Assembly (NCBI GenBank): GCA_016207825.1 | Contig: JACQZI010000027.1 | Coordinates: 66,929 to 130,928 of the forward strand | Direction: 5' to 3' | From: Planctomycetota bacterium | GTDB lineage: Bacteria > Planctomycetota > MHYJ01 > JACQXL01 > JACQZI01 | Length of the DNA: 64,000 bases | Program-made: the position numbers and the translations under genes | Shown: piece after piece, positions 908-64,000 of the stretch | Position numbering within the stretch: position 1 is the stretch's first letter | Layout: each line of letters begins with the position of its first letter | The notes under the pieces: generated by a model | Seen by the model: the letters and a program-made list of their open reading frames with translations, nothing else | Database searches by the model: none | What the model was told of the DNA's origin: nothing

Positions 908-952
908 GCAGTTCATAGAGTTTTTGGGGTTTGGAGAGTTTTTAGAGTCAAT

Positions 953-1321
953 ATGGGATCAATTCAACGGTTTGAAGATATTAAAGCATGGCAAAAAGCG
1001 CGTGAATTAGTCAACGAGATTTATAAAAGCACATCAACAGGATTGTTCGCCAAAGATTTTGGGTTAAGAGATCAGATACGCAGGGCATCCGTTTCCGTAA
1101 TGCTTAATATTGCCGAAGGATTTGCCCGCAAGACCAATAAAGAATTTGCCCGGTTTCTTGTCCAGGCGCACGGCTCATGCGCGGAGGTCCAATCCGCTTT
1201 GTACATTGCTTTAGATCAGGGGTATATTACAAAAGATAAATTTTCCGGATTATATGATAGGGCGGATGAAATATCTAAGATGCTTACATCCTTTGGACGG
1301 TATCTTATAAAGACCCAATAA
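953..1321 (+). CDS. four-helix-bundle protein (23S rRNA intervening-sequence protein family)
   Basis: 122 aa that resembles TIGR02436-type four-helix bundle proteins (AWQKARELVxEIY...NIAEGF...AxGSxxEVQSxLxxA). RBS-like GGAG upstream. Confidence 0.6.
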   Translation: MGSIQRFEDIKAWQKARELVNEIYKSTSTGLFAKDFGLRDQIRRASVSVMLNIAEGFARKTNKEFARFLVQAHGSCAEVQSALYIALDQGYITKDKFSGLYDRADEISKMLTSFGRYLIKTQ

Positions 1322-1325
1322 CTCT

Positions 1326-2159
1326 ATGAACTCTAAAAACACTATAAACTTAATCAAACTTGCTCTCAACGAAGATATCGGCAAGGGGGATATTACAAGC
1401 AAATCTGTCATCCCAGCTGGCAAGAAAGTAAAAGCGTTTATCATCGCCAGGGAAGATTGTATCATATGCGGACTGCCTTTGATTAATAAGATATATAAAA
1501 AGATATCCGGTAATATAAAGATTTCCCTGAAAACACAGGATGGAAAACTGGCAAAAAAGGGGAAAGTCTTAGCAGCGCTAAAAGGACCTGCCCGGCCAAT
1601 TCTGACCGGTGAACGCACGGTTCTTAATTTCCTCCAGCGGCTTTCCGGTATTGCCACGCTGACCGATAAATTTGTTAATAAGGCTAATAAATATAAGGTG
1701 AAAATACTGGATACCAGGAAAACCGTTCCGGGCTGGCGCATGCTGGATAAATATGCGGTGAAAACAGGCGGTGGAATCAACCACCGCAAGGGATTATATG
1801 ATGCCATATTGATAAAGAATAACCATATTGATATCGCGGGCGGGATAAATAAGATTAGGCTGCCGAAAATGAAATCAGTTCCGGTCGAGATAGAAGCGAG
1901 GAACCTGGGAGAATTCAGTTTGGCGATTAAATTAAAGCCTGATATTATTATGCTCGATAATATGAAAACGGGTAATATAAAGCAGGCGGTGAAGTTACGG
2001 AATAAGTTTAATCGTAACGTCAAATTGGAAATTTCCGGCGGAGTCAACTTGGATAATGTGGAAAGCTTTGCCCGGACAGGTGTTGATTTTATTTCAGTGG
2101 GCGCCTTGACGCATTCCGCGCCGGCCGTGGATATATCGATGAAGATTTTAGCTGATTAA
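1326..2159 (+). CDS. nadC: nicotinate-nucleotide pyrophosphorylase (quinolinate phosphoribosyltransferase)
   Basis: 277 aa with NadC motifs (LTGERTVLNFLQRLSGIAT, DTRKTxPG, GGxxNHRxGLxD, ISVGALTHSA). Confidence 0.9.
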   Translation: MNSKNTINLIKLALNEDIGKGDITSKSVIPAGKKVKAFIIAREDCIICGLPLINKIYKKISGNIKISLKTQDGKLAKKGKVLAALKGPARPILTGERTVLNFLQRLSGIATLTDKFVNKANKYKVKILDTRKTVPGWRMLDKYAVKTGGGINHRKGLYDAILIKNNHIDIAGGINKIRLPKMKSVPVEIEARNLGEFSLAIKLKPDIIMLDNMKTGNIKQAVKLRNKFNRNVKLEISGGVNLDNVESFARTGVDFISVGALTHSAPAVDISMKILAD

Positions 2160-2163
2160 ATAT

Positions 2164-2189
2164 TAGCCACAAAGGCACTAAGGCACAAA
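2164..2189 (+). repeat. TTAGCCAC-(NAAGRCAC)x3 repeat, left copy flanking the GxxExxY pseudogene
   Basis: ttagccacaaaggcactaaggcacaaa. The inverted partner is at 2587-2612. Confidence 0.6.
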
Positions 2190-2578
2190 TGAATTTTAAG
2201 TCATTATCTGATAAAGAAGAGGAAATCGGAAAGAAAATTGTCGATGCCGCTTATGTGCTGCATAAAAATCTTGGGCCTGGATTGTTAGAAAAGGTTTATG
2301 AAACCTGTTTCTGTTGTGAACTCTCAAAAGAGGACTTTCATATAAAAGACAGGTGGATTTGCCCATTGTTTATGATGGAGTGACTTTTGATGAAGGATTG
2401 CGGTTAGATGTTTTGTTGAAGATTCAGTGATTTGTGAGCTTAAAGCGGTGGACATTGTGAATCCGGTTTGGGAAGCGCAATTATTAAGTTACTTAAAACT
2501 TACAGGTAAAAGGCTGGAATTTATTATTAATTTTAATGTGCCTGTTATTAAAGACGGAATTAATCGGATTATTCTATA
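2189..2578 (+). pseudogene. GxxExxY family protein, disrupted by frameshifts and an internal stop
   Basis: The N-terminal 64 aa ORF (KIVDAAYxxHxxLGPGLLExVYE) ends prematurely. The rest of the family sequence (PIVYDGVTFDEGLRLDVLL..., then ICELKAVDIVNPVWEAQLLSYLKLTGKRLEFIINFN) continues downstream in two other frames. Confidence 0.6.
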
Positions 2579-2586
2579 AAAGGTTT

Positions 2587-2612
2587 TCTTGGTGTCTTTG
2601 TGTCTTAGTGGC
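2587..2612 (-). repeat. TTAGCCAC-(NAAGRCAC)x3 repeat, right (inverted) copy
   Basis: The reverse complement reads cgccactaagacacaaagacaccaagaa. Confidence 0.6.
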
Positions 2613-36337: not shown

Positions 36338-36658
36338 ATGATAACCATTGATGACTTCAGGAAAATAGAATTGAAAACCGGTAAAATAATATCCGTGGAA
36401 AACCACTCCAACGCCGATAAATTATATGTGCTGAAGGTTGATATCGGCGGGGAAATCAGGCAGATTGTCGCTGGATTAAAACCGTATTTAAAACCCGAGG
36501 AATTGCTTAATAAGAATGTCGCGGTTGTAGTGAACCTTCAGCCGGCAATACTGCGCGGAGTAGAAAGCCAGGGGATGGTGCTGGCGGCTTCGGCAGAAGG
36601 ATTGGTTACAATTTTAACCCCTGATAAAGAAGTGCCTCCCGGCTCCCGGGTATCTTAA
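36338..36658 (+). CDS. tRNA-binding domain protein (CsaA/YgjH-like, EMAP fold)
   Basis: DFRKIELKTGKIISVENHSNADKLYVLKVDIGGEIRQIVAGL is a typical OB-fold tRNA-binding domain. Confidence 0.75.
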   Translation: MITIDDFRKIELKTGKIISVENHSNADKLYVLKVDIGGEIRQIVAGLKPYLKPEELLNKNVAVVVNLQPAILRGVESQGMVLAASAEGLVTILTPDKEVPPGSRVS

Positions 36659-37281: not shown

Positions 37282-38269
37282 TCAAAAGATTGTCCCCTTC
37301 TTTTTTATAATCCAAATCCGAATAAATATAAGTCCCGTTTTCCGGTTTAACCAGAGCTCTTTTAAGGTTGTCGGCAGAGGTTATGATGACCTTTCCGTCC
37401 ACCTGTTCGAGGTACATTATCGCTGCTTTCACTTTCGGTCCCATGCTTCCGCTCCCGAAATGCCCTTCCTTTAAATATGCCTTTGCTTCGGTTAAAGACA
37501 TCTTGTCAATCGCTTTCTGGTTTGGTTTTCCGTAATTTAGATATACTTTCGGAATCGTGGTTAATATTAAAAGCGTTTGCGCCTTCATCTCGCTTGCCAG
37601 TATTGCCGAGGCAACATCTTTGTCAATTACCGCTTCGATGCCTTCATAATCATTATCCGCTTTTTTCCAGATGGGGATTCCGCCGCCGCCTAAGGCAATG
37701 ACCACGTGCCCGTCCACGGCGAGGTCGTGTATCATCGGGCGCTGGATTATCTTTACCGGCATCGGGGATGCCACCACACGGCGGTATCCGCGGCCGCTGT
37801 CTTCTTTCATCTGCCACTTGCGCTCTTTTTCCAGGATGCCCGCTTTTTCCTTGTCAAAGAAGGGGCCGATTGGCTTGGTTGGATTCTTAAATGCCGGGTC
37901 GTCTTTATTGACCACCACCTGCGTAATCATCGTGACGACATAGCGTTTTATTTTATGCCGCCTCAGTTCATTAAGTATTGCCTGCTGCAAAATATAGCCG
38001 ATGCTCCCTTCGGACTTGGCGACGCAGACATCTATGGGCATTGACGGAACCTGCTCACTGGCGGATTCATTTTGTATTAGGATATTGCCAACCTGCGGGC
38101 CGTTGCCGTGCGTGATAACCAGGTCGTAATCTGCCTTAAGTAAAGGAAATAGCTCCTTGGCAGTGCGCGCGGCGTTGGCTTCCTGCTCGCTGATAGTCCC
38201 TTTTTCCTTCTCGGTCAGGAGCGCATTCCCGCCCAATGCTAATACCAATAGCGGTCTTGTTTTGTTCAT
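37241..38269 (-). CDS. arcC: carbamate kinase-like
   Basis: Amino-acid-kinase fold: LVLALGGNAL...VITHGNGPQVG...the C-terminus matches carbamate kinases. No arcA/arcB/otc is adjacent. Confidence 0.75.
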   Translation of the reverse strand: MNKTRPLLVLALGGNALLTEKEKGTISEQEANAARTAKELFPLLKADYDLVITHGNGPQVGNILIQNESASEQVPSMPIDVCVAKSEGSIGYILQQAILNELRRHKIKRYVVTMITQVVVNKDDPAFKNPTKPIGPFFDKEKAGILEKERKWQMKEDSGRGYRRVVASPMPVKIIQRPMIHDLAVDGHVVIALGGGGIPIWKKADNDYEGIEAVIDKDVASAILASEMKAQTLLILTTIPKVYLNYGKPNQKAIDKMSLTEAKAYLKEGHFGSGSMGPKVKAAIMYLEQVDGKVIITSADNLKRALVKPENGTYIYSDLDYKKEGDNLLIGFSNDKKKDFVR

Positions 38270-38357
38270 AGTTTTTATTAAGGATACCGGGTAAATGTTA
38301 AAACTGAATTATAGTAACTTTTGCCTTTGGGTCAATCAAAATAAGATTTAATCAATT

Positions 38358-38434
38358 CTGCCACTAAGACACAAAGGCACAAATAGGAAAAACTAATAAT
38401 TTAATTCTTAGTGTCTTGGTGCCTTCGTGGCTAA
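38358..38434. repeat. palindromic element: ctgccactaagacacaaaggcacaaat - 20-nt AT spacer - inverted copy (rc ttagccacgaaggcaccaagacactaag)
   Basis: Same TTAGCCAC+(NAAGRCAC)x3 family as at 2164/2587 and 39799/39850. Confidence 0.6.
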
Positions 38435-39781
38435 TTTTTGGAATAATGCGAATTGAAGACCTGCTTGGTTAATAAACATCTCCAGCCCGCTTATGATGCG
38501 GCATACTTTTGCCCGCGCCTGGCGCAGCAATTTAGTTTCAGGCGGACGGTATATTGTATCCATAACCGCTAATCCTTTATGCAGGAGCTTTGCCGGGATT
38601 GGAGCGGCGTTTGGTTTCGGCATCATCCCGACAGGCGTGGCATTGATTAAAATATCAGTTTGCTTCATTGTTTCTTTTATCTTATGCCATTGAATAGCCT
38701 TGCATCCCAAGTCACGGGCCGCTTTTACGGCTTTGTCATAATGGCGATTGGCAATGGTAACCCTTGCTCCGTTATTTATAAGTTCATGGGCGATTGCCCG
38801 CCCCGCCCCGCCCGCTCCGAGGATTAAAATCTGCTTATCTTGCACTGAGCCTGTCGAAGCGCCTAAAGCCAGAATTGCGCCCCTGCCGTCCGTATTCGTA
38901 CAGATAAAACCGCCTTTCTTGTCGCGGTAAATAGTGTTAACTACGGAATTCCTTATCACTTTCTCTTTGAATGGCATCGTCACGCTAAGCGCGCGGATAT
39001 CCAGCGCACGCATCAGTTCAGGCAGAACCTTTATATTATGTATAAGGAACGGCAGATAAACCGCATTCATTTTGTATCTCTTGAATAATCCGTTGAATAA
39101 TACCGGGCTTAGGGAATACTTTACGGGATTACCGATTAGGCCGAAAACACGTGTTTTATTGTTTATCTTATCTGCCTGGTAATTATATTTCATCTCGTGG
39201 TAATCCAGTTGCCCCTCTGCGGTCCCTTCGGCGTTGTTAAGCGAGGCGTAAGACATCCATCCCCCGAACCGGCGGTAGAGCACACGGCTTGATAATCCTG
39301 CCTCTCCCATACAAAAGGCTGTGGTTGGTATAGTATCTTTGGTGTGTTTCAGTAAATTGAATATTTTAAGGTTATCCAATATATCATTAGCATAAGTGAC
39401 TATCTTAATAACATCCGACCTGGTTTCAGCCATTTGCTTATGGAGCCGTTTAAGGAAAGCCAACGAGGGCGTTTCCTTGAAATCATGGTAAGAAGCGATT
39501 ATCTTAGGCAGTCCTCGCTTGATATGGGGCATGTCTTCAAACGCTACATCCACATAGTCAAAGCGTCCGGAATCAATGGCGGATTGGAGGAGGCGGATAT
39601 TGTTCTTGGAGCGGCAAGTGAATATTAACCTGGTCCGGCCGGTTTTGGGAATGCGCTTTATATCGAAATCAGGAATCCCATCCGCGCGGAGCTCGATAAA
39701 ATCCGGCTTTTCCTTGAGAGCCAGTTGGAGTTTCTCCATCAGGCCACTGAACGATGTCGCTTTAATCGATATACACAACAT
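38408..39781 (-). CDS. aroDE: bifunctional 3-dehydroquinate dehydratase (type I) / shikimate 5-dehydrogenase
   Basis: N-terminal type I DHQase TIM-barrel region. C-terminal AroE (SLSPVLFNGLF..., Rossmann GAGGAGRAIA). Confidence 0.8.
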   Translation of the reverse strand: MLCISIKATSFSGLMEKLQLALKEKPDFIELRADGIPDFDIKRIPKTGRTRLIFTCRSKNNIRLLQSAIDSGRFDYVDVAFEDMPHIKRGLPKIIASYHDFKETPSLAFLKRLHKQMAETRSDVIKIVTYANDILDNLKIFNLLKHTKDTIPTTAFCMGEAGLSSRVLYRRFGGWMSYASLNNAEGTAEGQLDYHEMKYNYQADKINNKTRVFGLIGNPVKYSLSPVLFNGLFKRYKMNAVYLPFLIHNIKVLPELMRALDIRALSVTMPFKEKVIRNSVVNTIYRDKKGGFICTNTDGRGAILALGASTGSVQDKQILILGAGGAGRAIAHELINNGARVTIANRHYDKAVKAARDLGCKAIQWHKIKETMKQTDILINATPVGMMPKPNAAPIPAKLLHKGLAVMDTIYRPPETKLLRQARAKVCRIISGLEMFINQAGLQFALFQKLATKAPRH

Positions 39782-39798
39782 AATAAATCTTTTAAATC

Positions 39799-39879
39799 AG
39801 CCACAGAGGCTCAGAGAACACGGAGACCAAACATTTTATTTACAATTTCCTCTGTGCCCTCTGTGCCTCCGTGGCTAAT
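39799..39879. repeat. palindromic element: tcagccacagaggctcagagaacacggagacc - 20-nt AT spacer - cctctgtgccctctgtgcctccgtggctaa
   Basis: Third member pair of the same family. Sits in the divergent aroDE/nifU-like promoter region. Confidence 0.6.
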
Positions 39880-39967
39880 TTGCCACCATAATTACCTTGC
39901 TAAAACCGAAATTTATGTTATAATAATACTCTTATAAGTTAAAGTAAATATAAAAGAAAGGATAGTT

Positions 39968-40240
39968 ATGGCAGAAAAGAAAGAGGCTTGCGGATGCCAA
40001 GGAACCTGCGGCGGACTGATGACCAAGGTGGAAGCAGCGTTAAATAAAATCCGTCCGATGTTAGCTGCGGACGGCGGTAACGTGGACCTTGTTTCCGTGG
40101 ATGCGGCGAGCGGCGTGGTAAAGGTAAAGCTGGTCGGCGCCTGCGGATGCTGCCCGATGAGCCAGATGACCCTGAAAAACGGGATTGAACAGGCATTGAA
40201 AAAAGCCATTCCGGAAATCAAGAAAGTCGAATCGGTTTAA
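39968..40240 (+). CDS. NifU-like (Nfu-type) Fe-S cluster scaffold domain protein
   Basis: IRPMLAADGGNVDLVSVDAASGVVKVKLVGACGCCPMSQMTLKNGIE carries the CxxC Nfu motif. Cys-rich N-terminus. Confidence 0.8.
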   Translation: MAEKKEACGCQGTCGGLMTKVEAALNKIRPMLAADGGNVDLVSVDAASGVVKVKLVGACGCCPMSQMTLKNGIEQALKKAIPEIKKVESV

Positions 40241-40268: not shown

Positions 40269-40302
40269 GGCGTCCCGACGATTGCGTCGGGACGCCTTTT
40301 TT
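40269..40302 (+). terminator. Rho-independent terminator after nifU-like gene
   Basis: GGCGTCCCGACG-attg-CGTCGGGACGCC followed by TTTTTT. Confidence 0.75.
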
Positions 40303-40499
40303 ATTCCACCCGTCTTCGTATATTTCAGGGCTGTCATACTTAATTCCATTGTCTTTTTTTCCGCAAGGGGTGGATAAATTTCTGGGGGCTGTAGTACGCC
40401 TAACTCCATATTTACAAGGGTGTTATGAACTCTGCAGGCTGTATCTCCTTGTTTTATAAGAAATTGGGGCGATTTTCCACCTCTCTGACCACTACCCCC

Positions 40500-40815
40500 C
40501 CATCCCCACCCTCCCTATGGGGTATTTCTACGGTAGGGAGGGGCGGTCTGTATGGTGGGGATGGTTATTCCGGACGGCAGGGTAGGATGTTCTGTAGGAC
40601 GGGGTAGAATATTCTGTACGGTTGGGAGGGGTGTTCTGCACGGACGGGTAGTGCCCTCCGTACGGACGGGATGGTTATTCCGCAGGGTGGGGAGCAGTGT
40701 TCCGTACGGCAGGGAGTAATCCTCTATTGGGTGGGGATGGATGGTTTATACGGTATGGATATACCCTTCATACGGCAGGTAGGGAGCCTTTGTAGGGAGG
40801 GGCGGGGGTTTTAAA
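40500..40815. repeat. degenerate ~22-bp tandem array (about 13 units; GGG[AT]RG-N3-TNTTCTGTACGG-like), preceded by a C-rich tract
   Basis: Units such as ggtaggatgttctgtaggacgg, ggtagaatattctgtacgg, gaggggtgttctgcacggacgg, gatggttattccgcagggtgg. ggatggttattccg occurs twice. No conserved repeat/unique spacer structure. Confidence 0.6.
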
Positions 40816-42687: not shown

Positions 42688-43755
42688 ATGATAAAACGCC
42701 ATAAAACAAGAGCAGTCTGGATTGGCAAGGTCAAAGTCGGCGGCGGCGTCCCGGTCTCCGTCCAGTCCATGACCAAGACCAAAACCGAGGATATAAAATC
42801 CACGGTCCGCCAAATCCGCGAACTCGAGGATTTGGGATGCCAGATTATACGCCTGGCAATCCCGCGGATGAGCTCGGCGCAGGCGATTTCCAAGATAAAG
42901 AAACAAATTCATATACCGATAGAGGCGGATATACATTTTAATCCGGAACTGGCTTTGGAAGTAATAAAGCAGGGGGTGAATTCCGTCCGCCTGAATCCGG
43001 GAAATACCACAAACAAAGATGCGATAAGGGAAGTGGTGGCTCAAGCCAAGAAGCGGGAAATACCGATTCGGGTAGGGCTTAATTCCGGTTCGGTGTGGGG
43101 TTATAAGGGTAAAACGGGTAACACGATGGAGCAAAAACTGGTAGCCTGCGCGATAGAATTCAGCCGGTTCCTGGAATCGCTCAAGTTCCGTGATATCATG
43201 GTATCATTAAAGGCGTCCGATGTCGTTTCCACGATTAACGCCTATAGATTAATCGCCCAGAAAACTGATTATCCCTTACATCTTGGCGTGACCGCGGCCG
43301 GGCCGTTAAACAGTTCGATAATAAAATCCGCAATCGGAATCGGCTCGCTCCTGGCGGACGGCATCGGAGATACGATAAGGGTTTCGATAACCGGCACGCC
43401 GCATGACGAGGTGCGCATTGGCCATGAGATTTTGGAATCGCTCGGGTTAGCCAAAAGGCGTAAACCGGAAATAATCGCCTGCCCGACCTGCGGCAGATGC
43501 GAGATTGATATTGTGAAAATTGTGAAGCAAGTGGAATCACTAATCAAAAATCCGAAATCCGAAATCCGAAATCCGAAATTAAAGATTGCGATAATGGGAT
43601 GTGTGGTAAACGGTCCGGGCGAGGCCAGGGAGGCGGATATCGGAATCGCCGGAGGAAAGGATTTCGCTTTCCTCTTCAAGCATGGCAAGAGAATACGCAA
43701 AGTCCCAAGCGGAAAAATCGTCCCGGAATTTATAAAAGAAATAAAGAAATTATAA
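42688..43755 (+). CDS. ispG: 4-hydroxy-3-methylbut-2-enyl diphosphate synthase
   Basis: GcpE motifs (VQSMTKTKTED, RLNPGN, CPTCGRC, MGCVVNGPGE). Contains an internal (TCCGAAA)x4 heptamer repeat encoding KNPKSEIRNPK. Confidence 0.92.
   Translation: MIKRHKTRAVWIGKVKVGGGVPVSVQSMTKTKTEDIKSTVRQIRELEDLGCQIIRLAIPRMSSAQAISKIKKQIHIPIEADIHFNPELALEVIKQGVNSVRLNPGNTTNKDAIREVVAQAKKREIPIRVGLNSGSVWGYKGKTGNTMEQKLVACAIEFSRFLESLKFRDIMVSLKASDVVSTINAYRLIAQKTDYPLHLGVTAAGPLNSSIIKSAIGIGSLLADGIGDTIRVSITGTPHDEVRIGHEILESLGLAKRRKPEIIACPTCGRCEIDIVKIVKQVESLIKNPKSEIRNPKLKIAIMGCVVNGPGEAREADIGIAGGKDFAFLFKHGKRIRKVPSGKIVPEFIKEIKKL
43551..43578 (+). repeat. heptanucleotide tandem repeat (TCCGAAA)x4 inside ispG coding sequence
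   Basis: Seen directly: tccgaaatccgaaatccgaaatccgaaa. Confidence 0.9.
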
Positions 43756-43798
43756 CTCTTAAACTTTTAAACCCTTGAACTTTTAAACCAAGGAGCTT

Positions 43799-59587: not shown

Positions 59588-62119
59588 ATGAAAAAATCGT
59601 TATTATTAATCTGTATACTTGGTGTCCTTTGTGCCTTTGTGGTGTCGCAGGCCGTCTATGCCGGTTCCTGGCCGGATTTCTCCAATCCCGGCGGCGGCTC
59701 GTGGTATACCGGCTACTACCGTCCTGTCTCCATCAACAACACCGCCGGCGCGCAAACCGATTACCAAGTCGCCATTACCCCTTTTACCGATTCTAACTTT
59801 ATTAATAATTCAGGACTGGTCGGCTCGTGGCACTTCTCGGAAGGTTCGGGCACCACCACCGCCGATATGTCCGGTAACAGGAATAACGCAACGCTTAACG
59901 TTGGTGGAACTCTGGTTGATAACTGTGATGCCACCGCCGGCTGGACCGCTTCCGCCGCCGGTTCAGTAAGCCTTAATAATAGCCTTTACCGGGAAGGCGC
60001 TGGCGCGGTAAACTGTATAAAAACAGGGTTAACTACCACTCAAGTATTTTTTTACAAGACCATTGCCGTAACTAATATGCAGAATAAATGGCTTAATGTA
60101 TGGGTATATATCAACAACCAGGCTACCCTTAACAAAATTGGCCTGATGGAAGTGTTTGCGCTGAAGTCTGATTATTCCTGGTATATCTATAAAAGCCCTA
60201 TTTTGCCTGCTTCTCTACAGGTGGGTTGGAACCTCTTATCGCTTGATACCGCTAATCCCAGCGGGACATTCGGAACGCCGGATTTAACACAGGTAAACCA
60301 AATAAGGCTTGATGTTGACACCAATACTATCGATAAGACTTACGCCGCGGGCGATATTATTATGGACTATTGGTTCCTGTCTAATACCCAACCGACCTTT
60401 CCCGCCTGGACAGACGGCAAATTCGGCAAGGCGTTATCCTTTGACGGAGTGGATGATTATTTGGAAATCCCATCTTCTTCCTCGCTAAATAATTTAATTA
60501 CTGCAACATGGGAAACCTGGGTATACCCAACGCTTTCTGTTAGAGGGGATGGTCACCAACAAAAAATAATCTGGAGAAATGGCCCTTCGGCAAGTAATGC
60601 ATCTATACAGATGTATTGGGCAGGCGATACTTTTACAGTTGGAGCGTATGTAAATGCTTGGAATACGGCATCAAAAGGGGGATACAATATAAATCAATGG
60701 TATCATGTGATTGGAACTTTAGACGGTTCAAATATTAAACTCTATATTAATGGAGTTAATGTAGCAACTACGCCATGCGGGTCACTTGGAACAGGTTCAA
60801 CAGTATGGAGATTAGCAACATGGGATTCTACCGGCTATGATTTCAAAGGCATCATAGACGAAGTCCGCATTTATAACCGGGCGCTTACGTCCGCCGAAAT
60901 TTCCACCCGCTATAACTACTATACCACTAAACTCAAAGGCGATTATTCGGATATCCGCTTCACCGCCTCAACCGCCACCGGCAGCGCCGAACTTTCTTAC
61001 TGGCAGGAAACTGATAATAAATTCTGGGTCAAAGTCCCCAATCTGCCCGCCAATAATTCTTATATCTATATGTATTACGGCAATCCCTCGGCAACCTCGG
61101 TTTCCAATATCAATACCGCCTTTATCTTTGGGGATGATTTCTCGGTCGGCGGCCTTAATCCGGCTTGGGCGACTTATCAAAACGGCGGCGGAACAATTAC
61201 CGTAACTAATGGCGCCGCCGTCCTGGATTGCAATAGTTTCGCCGGTTGTGTCCGCCTCGAAAAAGCGGGATTGGCCGCGCCGTATATTATTGATGCCATC
61301 GCTAAAATAGAGTACCCCTATGGAGCTCATCGTTTCCGATTCTGTTCCCAAAACGCAGGATTTGATATCGGTATCTTTGATAGCAACAACATTTATTTCA
61401 ATGCTTGGACGGGCGTGGTTGTGGCAAATACTGCCTATGTAAGGTTAAAACAGATACATCAGTCTAACCGGGTTGACTGGCAGATATTTAATCTGGACGG
61501 CTCGCAGGTTTATAATAATAACTATGTCCCGGGAGGAGCGCCGAGTGGTATCTATTATTATCTTGGAGACGACCCCAACGGGGGCTGTAAAGTTACCCTG
61601 GATACCGTCTTCGTCCGCAAATATGCTTCGCCCGAACCGACTGTCGCCGCGCCGGGTGCGGAGTCTTATGGCTCATCCAAACGTGTGGAAACCGCGAACT
61701 GGGCAAGTTTGTGTCCGGCCGGAAAAGCTATCGTAATGGGACAGTCTATCGCCCAGGTCTCCTTTACCGCCTCGGTTACAGGCACGAATATTGCACGCTG
61801 GAAGAAGTTCCGCATAGATAAAAACATTACCGGCGTTGCTACTCCCGTTCCCGACAACAAAATAGAAATCCAAATCTGGATGGAAAATAATAATAACGGC
61901 TTCTGGGATACCGGCGATACCTTTATCTCTAAAGGCAATTTTACCAACGGCATCTGCTACCTTAATATGAAACAATGGCAGGTAACGACTACAACTAAGA
62001 CTTATTATATTGTATATAAATTAGCGGGAGATATTGGGGGAGGACAGAGAGCTGGCGTGAAAATAGTGGACAGTAGTTATTTGGAATTCGAGAATGCGAC
62101 ATGTGTAGGTGTTCCATAA
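59588..62119 (+). CDS. large secreted protein with LamG-like (concanavalin A-type) jelly-roll and DUF2341-like domains
   Basis: Signal peptide. LamG-like block (QWYHVIGTLDGSNIKLYINGV...GIIDEVRIYNRALTSAEI). DUF2341-like block (DYSDIRFTAS...WQETDNKFWVKVPNLPANNSYIYMYYGNP). Confidence 0.65.
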   Translation: MKKSLLLICILGVLCAFVVSQAVYAGSWPDFSNPGGGSWYTGYYRPVSINNTAGAQTDYQVAITPFTDSNFINNSGLVGSWHFSEGSGTTTADMSGNRNNATLNVGGTLVDNCDATAGWTASAAGSVSLNNSLYREGAGAVNCIKTGLTTTQVFFYKTIAVTNMQNKWLNVWVYINNQATLNKIGLMEVFALKSDYSWYIYKSPILPASLQVGWNLLSLDTANPSGTFGTPDLTQVNQIRLDVDTNTIDKTYAAGDIIMDYWFLSNTQPTFPAWTDGKFGKALSFDGVDDYLEIPSSSSLNNLITATWETWVYPTLSVRGDGHQQKIIWRNGPSASNASIQMYWAGDTFTVGAYVNAWNTASKGGYNINQWYHVIGTLDGSNIKLYINGVNVATTPCGSLGTGSTVWRLATWDSTGYDFKGIIDEVRIYNRALTSAEISTRYNYYTTKLKGDYSDIRFTASTATGSAELSYWQETDNKFWVKVPNLPANNSYIYMYYGNPSATSVSNINTAFIFGDDFSVGGLNPAWATYQNGGGTITVTNGAAVLDCNSFAGCVRLEKAGLAAPYIIDAIAKIEYPYGAHRFRFCSQNAGFDIGIFDSNNIYFNAWTGVVVANTAYVRLKQIHQSNRVDWQIFNLDGSQVYNNNYVPGGAPSGIYYYLGDDPNGGCKVTLDTVFVRKYASPEPTVAAPGAESYGSSKRVETANWASLCPAGKAIVMGQSIAQVSFTASVTGTNIARWKKFRIDKNITGVATPVPDNKIEIQIWMENNNNGFWDTGDTFISKGNFTNGICYLNMKQWQVTTTTKTYYIVYKLAGDIGGGQRAGVKIVDSSYLEFENATCVGVP

Positions 62120-62902: not shown

Positions 62903-64000
62903 ATGAAAAACAGGAGTTTAGTAATTTGGATTTGTTTGATCATTGTTTGGTCATTGGTCATTGGTAATTTGTGTAATTTCGCCTACGGCGACAGCTGGTC
63001 CGAAACCGTCTTTACCAATACAGGCAGTTCCTTCTCCAATACCGTCACCACCACCGGCTCGGCCGAAGTTAATTTATTATCCACCAGCCTTAATGCCGTA
63101 ACAATTACCGCCGGAGTATCTTCAAATTATACATTAGGCGTTTTTTCTGATAATAAACTCCGGTCATGGGGACATAATATGACCGGGCAATTGGGCTTGG
63201 GCGATGCCATCCAGCGCAACTCACCCGTTCAGGTCGGCGCAGATAGCTGGAAAGCAATCGCGAGCTCAGGTGACCCATATCTTTTGGGACAAATTTATGG
63301 GCATAGCGCCGGGATTAAAACTGATAATACACTTTGGACATGGGGATGTAATATGTATGGCCAATTAGGCTTGGGCGATACTAACCAGCGTAATTCTCCC
63401 GTTCAGGTCGGCGCCAATACATGGAAAGCAGTTGCTTGCGGCAATCACTATACCTTAGCTATCCGTTCTGACGATACCTTATGGGCTTGGGGGTATAATG
63501 GATTTGGTAATTTAGGCGATGGAACCACCACCCAGCGCAATTCACCTGTCCAGATAGGGGCAAGCACATGGAAAGCAATTGCCTGTGGAGGTTATCATAC
63601 ATTAGGGATTAGGTCTGATAATACCCTTTGGGCATGGGGTGCTAACGATTACGGGCAACTGGGGCTGAATGATACCACCCCGCGCAGTTCTCCTGTCCAG
63701 GTTGGGGCAAGCACATGGCAAATAATTTCTGCCGGCGGCACACACAGTTTGGCTATCCGTTCTGACAATACCTTATGGGCTTGGGGGTATAATGGCTTTG
63801 GTGAGGTAGGTGATGGGACAACTACCCAACGCAATTCTCCTGTTCAGGTGGGGGCAAGCACATGGAAAACGGTTTCTGCCGGAGGTCATAGGGGAACTTT
63901 TTATGTTGGATATTCAATAGGAATCCGTTCTGACGATACTCTCTGGTCATGGGGATCTAATAACAACGGGCAATTGGGCTTGGGCGATACTACAAACCGT
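62903..64000 (+). CDS. secreted RCC1-repeat (beta-propeller) protein, 3' partial
   Basis: Signal peptide, then at least 6 tandem RCC1-like repeats (WGxNxxGQLGLGDTxxRNSPVQVGAxxWKAIAxGxxHTLAIRSDxTLWAW). The ORF runs off the window end. Confidence 0.75.
   Translation, partial: MKNRSLVIWICLIIVWSLVIGNLCNFAYGDSWSETVFTNTGSSFSNTVTTTGSAEVNLLSTSLNAVTITAGVSSNYTLGVFSDNKLRSWGHNMTGQLGLGDAIQRNSPVQVGADSWKAIASSGDPYLLGQIYGHSAGIKTDNTLWTWGCNMYGQLGLGDTNQRNSPVQVGANTWKAVACGNHYTLAIRSDDTLWAWGYNGFGNLGDGTTTQRNSPVQIGASTWKAIACGGYHTLGIRSDNTLWAWGANDYGQLGLNDTTPRSSPVQVGASTWQIISAGGTHSLAIRSDNTLWAWGYNGFGEVGDGTTTQRNSPVQVGASTWKTVSAGGHRGTFYVGYSIGIRSDDTLWSWGSNNNGQLGLGDTTNR

Follow-up and report, generated by a model that had tools for sequence, protein, structure and literature searches.

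We lean toward the reading that the inverted repeats described here are the terminal inverted repeats of a single-gene mobile DNA cassette of ~0.45–0.5 kb, the open reading frame (ORF) of which encodes a GxxExxY PD-(D/E)XK nuclease of ~130 aa. The window, the whole stretch of 64,000 nucleotides that was analyzed, comes from a Planctomycetota MAG, and the underlying data are mostly from MAGs. Within the window there is one decayed full cassette (2164–2612) and there are two doublets without an ORF (38358–38434 and 39799–39879). Their arms come from two subfamilies.

Inspection of the window finds six arms arranged as three inverted pairs. The arms consist of (T)TAGCCAC followed by two or three eight-base words of the form CAC-N-AAG-R. 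When the window is searched with the pattern GCCACNRAGRCNCNRAGRNAC, allowing up to two mismatches, there are seven matches compared with 0.05 expected, and every match falls within the six arms. None of 100 shuffles reaches seven matches. A repeat search of the window ties arms of different loci together, and the eight-base word arrays are also called independently by TRF. Many further short tandem arrays are called by TRF in the same genome. The first-pass annotation described the arms as six copies of one repeat. The six arms, their pairing and their coordinates hold, and pair 3 belongs to a different word subtype, CAC-R-GAG-R. A seventh, looser match had been proposed at 59620–59645; it is an unpaired, solo resemblance with indels, located where a signal peptide is encoded, and its membership in the family is not supported. 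The repeat is not confined to these three loci, as further arm copies lie just upstream of the window. An upstream extension of the sequence added only 0.8 kb. In the flanks of the three window pairs, neither a convincing target duplication nor an outer repeat is detectable.

The first pair bounds a unit of 449 nt (2164–2612) as terminal inverted repeats. The left terminal arm (2164–2189, plus strand) reads TTAGCCAC, followed by the words AAAGGCAC and TAAGGCAC and then AA, and it directly adjoins the ATG at 2189. Compared with the family norm, this arm is ~9 nt short, and the last word, which bears the Shine-Dalgarno site, has therefore been lost. The right terminal arm (2587–2612, minus strand) reads GCCAC TAAGACAC AAAGACAC CAAG on the minus strand and is 7 nt from the stop codon. 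Between the arms is a GxxExxY pseudogene (PF13366/TIGR04256, PD-(D/E)XK; 2189–2579, plus strand) that is spread over three frames (2189–2383, 2353–2430 and 2427–2579) by two frameshifts, near 2345–2368 and 2412–2445. The D...ExK motif and the catalytic residues are readable, and the ORF is broken. After repair, the 130-aa translation matches TIGR04256 over its full length (E=5e-38, 129.9 bits, cut-off 35) and PF13366 (E=5e-36, 123.9 bits, cut-off 22), which agrees with the initial description of a frame-broken GxxExxY gene flanked by the first pair. Assembly error is excluded by the presence of identical frame breaks in three independent assemblies.

The protein model has a pLDDT of 93.5. Its top structural matches, including the best-ranked ones, are mostly PD-(D/E)XK nucleases, and these matches are hydrolytic enzymes. 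The residues D74, E84 and K86 are invariant. PD-(D/E)XK nucleases are not known to catalyze strand transfer by themselves. A search by sequence found no solved structure for a GxxExxY protein. PADLOC gives only a marginal match to Cas4. The PD-(D/E)XK homing endonucleases I-Bth0305I and I-Ssp6803I and the Rpn/YhgA-like proteins are, like GxxExxY, small selfish nuclease genes with the same fold, and I-Bth0305I is among the structural matches of the model. Membership of GxxExxY in either group was not found at the sequence level. Homing endonuclease genes, in contrast to the cassettes, lack both inverted terminal repeats and target duplications, and they spread when an empty allele that has been cut is repaired, while Rpn proteins are ~300 aa long and belong to another Pfam family. 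GxxExxY is listed as 'Unknown' in PMC3424549, and PDDEXK_2 is given there as a putative transposase.

The association between the arms and the gene extends well beyond the window. In most of 80 loci, which represent more than 15 phyla, the same arms bracket an intact GxxExxY gene at a constant distance, so that GxxExxY genes elsewhere are also flanked by the repeat, a point on which the first-pass annotation had staked its interpretation. The carriers include Ignavibacteriales, Planctomycetota, Cloacimonadota, Desulfobacterales, Nitrospirota, Bacteroidota, WOR-3, Dehalococcoidia, and others. The ATG follows the G of GCCAC at a distance of 32 nt, and the end of the right arm is 26 nt past the stop codon; the spacing between arms and ORF is fixed to a single nucleotide in all subfamilies. 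The arm core has 245 matches in 416 kb of GxxExxY loci versus one in 359 kb of control loci, the control set being metagenome loci retrieved with the window nadC. The best match in that metagenome scan, in which an empty site in a close relative was sought, is only 54% identical and is therefore useless as an empty-site comparison. Some miscalled proteins contain the translated arm, for example as PQRHEDTK or HKGTKAQR.

Other GxxExxY subfamilies are flanked by other words, namely CACAGAA, CACRGAGG (the pair 3 type) and CGCGAAGG. In subfamily 2, CACAGAA words with a ~10-bp period are present at five of five loci. By organism, the words are CACAGAGGA in Bacteroides, CACAGAGA in Bernardetia and CGCGAAGG in Sphingomonas. 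A profile search places the size of the GxxExxY family at 36,348 clusters at 50% identity. In scans of viral contigs for subfamily 1, subfamily 2 and the four-helix-bundle protein, relatives are absent or only distant.

Evidence for mobility comes from relatives of the window cassette. An extra outer repeat, GTAACT..TCA, is carried by only about 12 of 61 elements. Clean 8-bp duplications are located directly outside the outer repeat at L080, L042, L040, and L016, and seven of eight positions match in the duplications at L026 and L066. Flanking direct repeats with a longest common substring of at least 7 are observed 15 times, compared with 6.0 expected (0 of 300 shuffles); for a substring of at least 9, the counts are 4 and 0.56. 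In a different GxxExxY subfamily, Sphingomonas parapaucimobilis has a cassette between fabD and fabG, whereas these genes are adjacent in S. paeninsulae; the two species are too diverged to give the exact junctions of this filled and empty site. Nine other listed fabD–fabG records span ~1.7 kb versus 2.16 kb, which is consistent with no cassette, the sequence having been inspected for S. paeninsulae alone. Together, the target duplications and the filled/empty site indicate insertion at the DNA level.

Near-identical copies also occur at different loci. L054 and L066 share 97% nucleotide identity at different loci of one genome, and L017 and L024, which come from different phyla and have unrelated flanks, are 92% identical. 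Non-orthologous relatives are closer for copies that carry the outer repeat (p = 2e-6; 61 elements). Copies at orthologous sites have diverged about as much as the genes beside them and persist across species with the ORF intact. In a look-up for recent multi-site copies, proteins identical to P0076 and to P0048 were each found at a single locus across samples. These last two observations indicate that movement is rare. The ORF may owe its retention to some function besides transposition.

The initial proposal of a MITE-like or insertion cassette with a selfish gene is thus supported by the unit of arms and gene, the target duplications, the filled/empty site, and the gene remnants in doublets described below. 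Terminal repeats are present in the window unit, target duplications are present in relatives only, and orthologous presence/absence is found at the Sphingomonas fabD–fabG site. No recognized transposase (DDE, HUH, serine/tyrosine recombinase or Cas1) is found in the unit, in which the only ORF is PF13366. Literature on GxxExxY, PDDEXK_3/PF13366, 23S_rRNA_IVP and the arm sequences contains nothing that describes these repeats, and the cassette is a real variant of the TIR/TSD mini-elements, apparently without earlier description in the literature searched. Literal matches to the arm sequences in the literature are from unrelated eukaryotic studies.

A second cassette, with a four-helix-bundle gene, is found next to the GxxExxY cassette. 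It occupies 442 nt (911–1352, plus strand) and contains a PF05635/TIGR02436 gene at 953–1321 between inverted arrays of nine-base words, with 3.7 copies of TAGAGTTTT at 916–948 and 3.4 copies of AACTCTATA at 1320–1350. The start codon and first eight codons of nadC are inside the right array. The same inverted word-array layout is also found with four-helix-bundle genes beyond the window. This shared architecture agrees with the early suggestion that the four-helix-bundle gene is a second gene of selfish type. Four-helix-bundle cassettes encode a non-enzyme, which suggests that the ORF product need not be a mobilizing enzyme.

The two doublets in the window have no gene. In doublet 2, the plus-strand arm (38358–38384) is of the NAAGR word type, as in pair 1. 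The aroDE ORF (38408–39781, minus strand) ends inside the minus-strand partner arm (38405–38434), which takes in its last eight sense codons and its stop codon. In doublet 3, the plus-strand arm (39799–39829) is of the RGAG word type and reads GCCAC AGAGGCTC AGAGAACAC GGAG; its partner is at 39850–39879 on the minus strand. The hairpin of doublet 2 has a predicted energy of -24.9 kcal/mol (z = -4.95) and that of doublet 3 has -38.4 kcal/mol on the plus strand and -46.8 kcal/mol on the minus strand (z about -8). The settings are as originally described: pair 2 separates two minus-strand genes, carbamate kinase and aroDE, and pair 3 is in the region between the divergent aroDE and a NifU-like gene. 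Gene remnants are not detectable in the window doublets (70–76 nt), which share their ends with gene-bearing cassettes.

Elsewhere, 6 of 21 doublets keep significant 5′ and 3′ gene remnants, and some doublets in related loci are thus MITE-like. No convincing target duplications are found at doublets generally. Doublets form tandem arrays at L081, L037 and L044. Across the 80 GxxExxY loci, 128 arms flank a gene and 42 are doublet arms. The RGAG arm type flanks a Bacteroides GxxExxY gene and also forms doublets in 27 IMG/VR loci; none of these 27 viral-contig loci adjoins a GxxExxY gene. At the gathering score, Rfam finds only tRNAs in the whole window, and at an E-value threshold it gives only sub-threshold, miRNA-like hairpin matches at the doublets (38200–40000). 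A terminator or attenuator role had been raised for the palindromic units. A terminator and promoter scan found no terminator-like site at the doublets, and the terminator role is rejected; an attenuator role is not supported either.

The intact unit consists of GCCAC, three CAC-N-AAG-R words, a Shine-Dalgarno site, a 393-nt ORF, TAA and a mirror-image arm. In young copies, the outer repeat GTAACT..TCA is added outside the arms. Between co-directional neighbors, 44 cassettes are in the sense orientation and none is antisense. From this nearly constant orientation, the cassette is probably a promoterless gene that is transcribed through from the host operon. The ribosome-binding site of the cassette gene would lie within the last word of the left arm. 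Identity at codon positions 1, 2 and 3 is 76%, 90% and 44.5%, and the GxxExxY ORF is under strong purifying selection.

The evidence shows that the cassette is inserted as DNA into spacers between the genes of housekeeping operons, with 8-bp duplications at the best-preserved copies. A long period of vertical inheritance follows, with the ORF under purifying selection, broken by occasional moves inside a genome or from one phylum to another. Among the doublets in related loci, some are internal-deletion derivatives. The invariant CAC and AAG triplets, which have free positions between them, may be sequence-specific recognition modules for a protein that binds each end of the unit as double-stranded DNA. 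Of the possible binders, an oligomer of the cassette's own nuclease would be the likeliest, since the word type changes with the protein subfamily; the two are, however, physically linked, and common descent alone could produce this co-variation. The nuclease may make the end cuts, staggered cuts in the target, or both, with joining left to host repair. The outer repeat would be needed for movement and would decay after fixation, while the words and the ORF would be retained for expression or maintenance. A further proposal, that GxxExxY cassettes are autonomous transposons with the word-bound oligomer of the 130-aa nuclease as transposase, and that the same vehicle carrying four-helix-bundle genes seeded the ORF-bearing rRNA IVSs, appears rather doubtful to us.

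The cassettes resemble IS elements and MITEs in their terminal inverted repeats, in the 8-bp duplications and filled/empty site of relatives, in their amplification within genomes, and in having internal-deletion derivatives with common ends. They differ from IS elements in that 0.45 kb is far below the size of any autonomous IS and a recognizable transposase is absent. They also differ in their two-layered inverted repeat (outer repeat and word arrays), their extreme sense bias, and the persistence of ORF-intact copies at orthologous sites across species. In a less favored, tentative alternative, the cassettes are non-autonomous passengers and a transposase encoded elsewhere recognizes the outer repeat GTAACT..TCA. 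The nuclease and the four-helix-bundle protein would then be cargo, with roles in, for example, defense, anti-defense or addiction, and the words would serve the cargo gene through autoregulation, expression or insulation. Such a division of labor is in line with the occurrence of two unrelated small-protein families in one architecture and with the lack of a transposase in the cassette itself. It also fits the restriction of the outer repeat to a recently spread lineage, while old copies that no longer move still have the words. DDE enzymes typically leave a duplication of fixed length, and the 8-bp duplications here fit such an enzyme. The outer repeat may resemble IS66 or IS6 ends, a likeness that is not used as evidence. 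However, no transposase gene is seen near the 80 loci, except for an unrelated DDE_Tnp_1 located 2.4 kb away in L221. In about 1 Mb of loci there is no carrier of the outer repeat that lacks GxxExxY arms. The abutment of arms and ORF at single-nucleotide-fixed spacing in all subfamilies likewise speaks against this alternative.

The cassettes share several properties with the 23S IVSs of Coxiella and Leptospira. Both are ~0.45 kb long, with one ORF of ~120–130 aa that fills the space between terminal repeats, and both are regarded as selfish and vertically inherited. Both have short tandem words between the repeat and the ATG, which in Coxiella are GACAGAT heptamers (PMC4990558). In the Coxiella IVS, which is 428–444 nt long, RNase III cleaves a 28-bp stem, and the tandem heptamers precede the ATG of an S23p ORF (PMC4990558). 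The 449-nt and 442-nt window units agree with the size and layout of these IVSs (~0.4–0.75 kb), and the neighboring window cassette encodes their protein family, PF05635. In contrast, 23S IVSs are found in rRNA helices and the cassettes in intergenic spacers of mRNA; the window contains no rRNA, and its cassettes are between protein-coding genes. The GxxExxY cassettes also differ in their PD-(D/E)XK nuclease ORF, sequence-conserved arms, and target duplications. GxxExxY genes may also occur inside rRNA IVSs, a point that is not used as evidence. The supplement of the CPR rRNA-insertion paper lists PF05635 and does not list PDDEXK_3.

An RNA-level element of this kind, in which the arms pair in the transcript, RNase III cuts the stem to free the ORF RNA or split the flanking messages, and the doublets act as processing or stability hairpins, is improbable. 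The arms can pair (mean duplex -31 kcal/mol, 87% of positions pairable), the folding energies of the window doublets range from -25 to -47 kcal/mol (z from -5 to -8), and the strict sense orientation within operons and the match to the Coxiella IVS in size and layout (PMC4990558) would suit it. However, the variable positions of left and right arms are uncorrelated (28.6% vs 32.9% identical; 49.5% vs 50.1% pairable when G-U is allowed), and cognate arms pair no better than non-cognate arms (-31.2 and -31.5 kcal/mol). The lack of covariation indicates that sequence is conserved rather than pairing. What is conserved across phyla is a set of specific triplets, which a stem does not need. In addition, doublet 3 is in a divergent promoter region, no Rfam family is matched, and the target duplications and filled/empty site point to DNA-level insertion, whatever the RNA does.

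The cassettes are similar to REP/REPIN/BIME sequences and their RAYT genes in having a bracketed gene, dispersed intergenic doublets without a gene, tandem doublet arrays, and long vertical inheritance. A host-serving system of this type, with doublets useful as mRNA stabilizers or protein-binding sites and GxxExxY as a domesticated RAYT-like enzyme, is nevertheless very improbable. It would account for the inverted doublets, for the BIME-like arrays at the three loci above, for a gene flanked by inverted repeat units as in RAYTs (the REPIN concept, PMC3116915), and for purifying selection on a vertically inherited ORF. It does not account for the arms, which are arrays of 8–10-bp words and not individual hairpins; a single arm is not a palindrome, and only arm pairs are palindromic. 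The enzyme is a PF13366 PD-(D/E)XK nuclease and not an HUH Y1 protein, genomes carry the gene in multiple copies, each between arms of its own, and there are target duplications. Most arms in the 80 loci are gene-bound (128 vs 42 doublet arms), and the host benefit is putative. Finally, chance similarity, simple-sequence slippage or assembly artefact can be set aside as practically negligible despite the richness of the genome in other short tandem arrays, being already refuted by the excess of matches in the window, the same sequence in three assemblies, and the same arms at hundreds of loci elsewhere.

With the reading of a single-gene mobile cassette, a very large family that PGAP names GxxExxY, and that has been unexplained, becomes a testable mobile-element system in which the arms are defined DNA substrates for testing the nuclease. 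The cassettes explain several annotation artefacts, including N-terminal 'PQRHKDTK' or 'TEDTE' extensions, C-terminal 'NSKNSINS' tails and two-domain run-on fusions. They also explain why the ends of some housekeeping genes are altered, as with the start of nadC and the tail of aroDE in the window, and account for one class of the hairpin repeats that lie between genes in bacteria and in phage contigs. The architecture held in common with four-helix-bundle 'IVS protein' genes also gives a concrete starting point for explaining how rRNA IVSs arose and move. If the cassettes were autonomous, their nuclease would be a transposase of a new mechanistic class, and no smaller autonomous DNA transposon would be known.

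The inverted repeats of the window are probably the ends of a mobile single-gene cassette, of which the window holds one dead copy and two gene-less pairs of arms. The first-pass annotation placed six copies as three inverted pairs, and all six are borne out by inspection of the sequence. Read inward from its outer end, each arm opens with (T)(T/C)A-GCCAC and continues in two or three 8-base words. The arms of pair 1, which brackets the GxxExxY gene (cassette 2164-2612), are TTAGCCAC AAAGGCAC TAAGGCAC AA (2164, + strand) and ACGCCAC TAAGACAC AAAGACAC CAAG (2612, - strand). Those of the gene-less doublet 2 are TCTGCCAC TAAGACAC AAAGGCAC AAA (38358, +) and TTAGCCAC GAAGGCAC CAAGACAC TAAG (38434, -), and those of doublet 3 are TCAGCCAC AGAGGCTC AGAGAACAC GGAG (39799, +) and TTAGCCAC GGAGGCAC AGAGGGCAC AGAGG (39879, -). 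The word type differs, with CAC-R-GAG-R in pair 3 and CAC-N-AAG-R in pairs 1 and 2. A repeat search and TRF find the arms independently, and a degenerate arm pattern has seven matches in the window, every one inside the six arms (0.05 expected by chance). With an indel and no partner arm, the proposed seventh copy at 59620-59645 (CTTGGTGTCCTTTGTGCCTTTGTGG) is not counted as an arm. Its translation forms the hydrophobic core of a signal peptide, that of a LamG/DUF2341 protein; an old arm co-opted into the signal peptide is conceivable, and chance is also possible.

The GxxExxY gene (2189-2579) has two frameshifts that spread its coding sequence over three frames, and identical breaks are found in three independent Logan assemblies. 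Its repaired translation is a full-length match to both TIGR04256 (E=5e-38) and PF13366 (E=5e-36). The cassette has nadC on one side and a panE-like gene on the other, all three on the + strand; the window proteins are MBI48351xx on the NCBI record, a Planctomycetota MAG. Doublet 2 separates carbamate kinase from aroDE, and doublet 3 occupies the space between the divergent aroDE and NifU-like genes. The minus-strand aroDE ORF terminates within the right arm of doublet 2 (38408-38434), which encodes its final residues, LATKAPRH, and the stop codon.

The arms accompany the gene across phyla. A search with the repaired protein yields at least 7,977 relatives, and the best 120 listed are 72-78% identical to it and carry names from very different phyla. 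In a scan of one genome per species there are 533 confirmed GxxExxY loci, and most of the best 80 have the same inverted-arm bracket around the gene. The left consensus is (T)(T/C)A GCCAC N AAG R CAC N AAG R CAC N AAG GA, about 5 nt before the ATG, and the right consensus, after a 393-nt ORF, is TAA TCTT N GTG Y CTT N GTG Y CTT N GTGGC T(A/G)A. In these 80 loci, the commonest distance from the G of GCCAC to the ATG is 32 nt, and that from the stop to the end of the right arm is 26 nt. The consensus reappears in an alignment without any arm anchoring. In the final left-arm word, AAGGA has the position of a Shine-Dalgarno site, 5 nt ahead of the ATG. The 416 kb of GxxExxY loci contain the arm core 245 times, vs once in 359 kb of unrelated metagenomic loci. 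Confinement of the repeat to the three window loci, a possibility raised in the first-pass annotation, does not hold because this genome carries two more copies, a short way upstream of the window on the same contig (locus L184). The first, 4.5 kb upstream, is P0126 (L184:889-1325), an intact GxxExxY gene from a second subfamily, with its own arms of TTAGCCAC and CACAGAA-type words, and the TAG stop of the gene upstream falls inside TTAGCCAC. The other is a solo arm of the subfamily 1 type (L184:2396-2430), directly 3' of an unrelated gene.

P0126 is approximately 41-50% identical over the aligned region and has at least 8,000 relatives in WOR-3, Chloroflexota, Verrucomicrobia and others. The arms of subfamily 2 consist of AGCCAC plus CACAGAA words with a period of about 10 bp (5 of 5 loci). 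Other GxxExxY genes have further words: TTCACCAC AGAGGACGC AGAGGACAC GGAGGAG and its mirror image in Bacteroides finegoldii, of the RGAG type seen in pair 3, CACAGAGA in Bernardetia and CGCGAAGG in the high-GC Sphingomonas. Proteins with miscalled starts contain the translated left arm (MPQRHEDTK..., SHEGTKAQR..., RHKGTKALR...), and subfamily 2 run-on peptides include PQKHTEIHGNE. Translated right arms elsewhere give Cys/Leu/Val-rich peptides (VSWCLCG in P0022) similar to that encoded at 59620-59645. A profile search with both subfamilies yields 36,348 clusters at 50% identity. Many matches (e.g., P0366 and P0368; 250-295 aa) are two GxxExxY domains linked by a translated arm; these two-domain "proteins" are run-on calls over tandem cassettes.

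The function of the GxxExxY family is given as unknown in a published survey (PMC3424549). The structure model is confident (pLDDT 93.5, from a 108-sequence alignment). Its best PDB matches are weak (E >= 0.01), and the majority, including the top-ranked, are PD-(D/E)XK nucleases (lambda exonuclease, Cas4, tRNA-splicing endonuclease, DrdV, I-Bth0305I and Hjc). Residues E34, D74, E84 and K86 are invariant in both subfamilies. In 57 intact genes, codon positions 1, 2 and 3 are 76%, 90% and 44.5% identical; the protein is under strong purifying selection, with silent sites near saturation.

The CAC and AAG triplets are approximately 90-100% conserved in arm-anchored alignments, a figure that includes some positions set by the anchoring pattern itself, and the N and R positions of the words vary freely. 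The arms are able to pair (87% of positions pairable), and the window doublets have fold energies of -25 to -47 kcal/mol (z -5 to -8). The variable positions of the left and right arms of one element are uncorrelated, with 28.6% identical vs 32.9 +/- 2.8% in shuffles, or 49.5% vs 50.1% pairable when G-U is allowed. Duplex energies are -31.2 kcal/mol for cognate and -31.5 kcal/mol for non-cognate arms. Selection thus acts on the sequence of the arms and not on their complementarity, which suggests that both ends are recognised sequence-specifically as double-stranded DNA and not as an RNA stem.

Insertion and movement at the DNA level are supported by target duplications, by a filled and an empty site, and by closely similar copies at different loci. 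Direct repeats are enriched in the flanks. The longest common substring is at least 7 in 15 loci vs 6.0 expected (0/300 shuffles) and at least 9 in four loci vs 0.56 expected. A subset of elements has an outer inverted repeat, GTAACT(N2-3)TCA(G), ahead of GCCAC. Immediately outside it are clean 8-bp duplications in L080 (TAAAAATG), L042 (CTCCAAAG), L040 (TTAGCTTT) and L016 (AAACCTGA), and imperfect ones, matching at 7/8 positions, occur in L026 and L066. A cassette separates fabD and fabG in Sphingomonas parapaucimobilis; the two genes are adjacent in S. paeninsulae, the sole record inspected, and nine other listed records are consistent with no cassette by span (~1.7 kb vs 2.16 kb). Amplification and transfer are indicated by the resemblance among copies: those of one genome resemble each other more than the family average, two copies at different loci, L054 and L066, are 97% identical, and a pair with unrelated flanks, L017 (Dehalococcoidia) and L024 (Elusimicrobia), shares 92% identity. 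Nucleotide identity between closest non-orthologous relatives is 0.88-0.92 with the outer repeat vs 0.78 (p = 2e-6, with lineages that are not phylogenetically independent). This is only suggestive of an outer repeat that marks the recently mobile lineage and later decays.

Between co-directional neighbours, 44 cassettes are in sense orientation and none are antisense. The host operons are housekeeping operons: fumarase-malic enzyme, nuoA-nuoE, fabD-fabG and, in the window, nadC-panE. In L164, the upstream fumarase ORF extends to the start of the GxxExxY gene. Across samples, identical proteins occupy one locus each, and cassettes at orthologous sites of different species have diverged at the pace of the genes beside them and are still intact. 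The cassettes thus move rarely and reside long. This lifestyle is nearer to that of RAYTs or the Coxiella IVS than to that of a typical IS.

The best 80 loci also contain 21 gene-less inverted doublets (69-129 nt), 72 further arms, left-left and right-right arm tandems, and right arms with attached 5'-truncated gene remnants. Tandem doublet arrays of up to six or more units, with linkers of approximately 16-20 nt (L081:1687-3900, L037:1789-3546 and L044:3405-3875), resemble BIMEs and could at first sight be taken for CRISPR arrays. Some arms in L081 have a small embedded hairpin (TCCCGATAGCTATCGGGA). Six doublets (~108 nt each) keep significant 5' and 3' gene remnants and are thus internal-deletion derivatives. 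Gene remnants were not found in the short doublets, including the two in the window, nor were target duplications seen around doublets. The window doublets have no Rfam family match and no terminator pattern. RGAG-type doublets are intergenic in 27 IMG/VR contigs classed as viral (L185-L211), several per contig (three in L203), none with an adjacent GxxExxY gene. Other short intergenic word arrays recur in these contigs (CGAAACG, GTGACGA and TTTGTCC).

The four-helix-bundle gene of the window (PF05635/TIGR02436; 953-1321) is flanked by inverted 9-base word arrays, TAGAGTTTT x3.7 on the left (916-948) and AACTCTATA x3.4 on the right (1320-1350). Two further such genes in the fetched loci share this layout with other words, GGTTCARAG in L013 and TTTNATTNG in L076. 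Many miscalled proteins among 4,526 four-helix-bundle homologues run on into NSKNSINSTNSK, QTLRTLKTLQTLKT, PIDPIDPIDSID or QQTQQTQKTQ tails and others begin EFIEFFEFF; these tails and starts are translated 9-base word arrays. The Coxiella 23S IVS is built on the same plan as the word-array cassettes: its terminal stem measures 28 bp, and tandem heptamers precede the ATG of its S23p ORF (PMC4990558). The architecture is thus common to two unrelated small-protein families, one of them the classic IVS protein. The right array (1320-1352) encodes the ATG (1326) and first 8 codons (MNSKNTIN) of nadC, and nadC homologues align only from about residue 8-13 onward. Insertion of the four-helix-bundle cassette seems to have given this housekeeping gene a new N-terminus and start codon.

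Adjacent cassettes and other repeats are also seen. In L013:3001-3995, a GxxExxY cassette is followed approximately 50 nt on by a four-helix-bundle cassette, and nadC in the window is flanked by one cassette of each type. A common insertion preference of the two families, or co-operation between them, is possible. A perfect heptamer array (AAATCCG x4.6; 43548-43579), which reads KNPKSEIRNPK, looks like an in-frame word-array insertion in the essential GcpE/IspG gene (42688-43755). An 8-base array (AACTCTTA x4.4; 43754-43789), similar to four-helix-bundle right-arm words (AACTCTAAA), fills the gap from the GcpE stop to the PBP Shine-Dalgarno site and may be a solo arm. A G-rich stretch of approximately 340 nt that repeats every 22 nt (TACGG.AGGG.GGGG...; 40470-40810) occupies part of the 560-nt non-coding gap separating two convergent genes, just past a strong hairpin and T-run (40270-40305). 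Coding repeats with a 147-nt period and the RCC1-like motif WGxNxxGQLGLGD (63128-63988) run off the window end.

The element is a TIR/TSD mini-element, akin in form to IVSs, MITEs and REPINs. The favoured mechanism, less secure than cassette mobility itself, is that the cassette's own nuclease would recognise the word arrays and make the cuts, and host repair would complete insertion. It is favoured because the arms are conserved as sequence, are subfamily-specific and abut the ORF at fixed spacing, and because the cassette carries no other enzyme. Mobilisation in trans via the outer repeat, with the ORFs as cargo, is the main rival and keeps substantial weight because the four-helix-bundle cassettes encode no enzyme and strand transfer is not a known activity of PD-(D/E)XK nucleases. 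An RNase III or IVS-type RNA role, which may coexist with a DNA-level role, leaves both the conservation pattern and the target duplications unexplained. Neither these repeats nor the mobility of GxxExxY genes is described in the searchable literature or in Rfam, and an unindexed source is possible. If the nuclease is indeed the transposase, the cassette would be categorically new.
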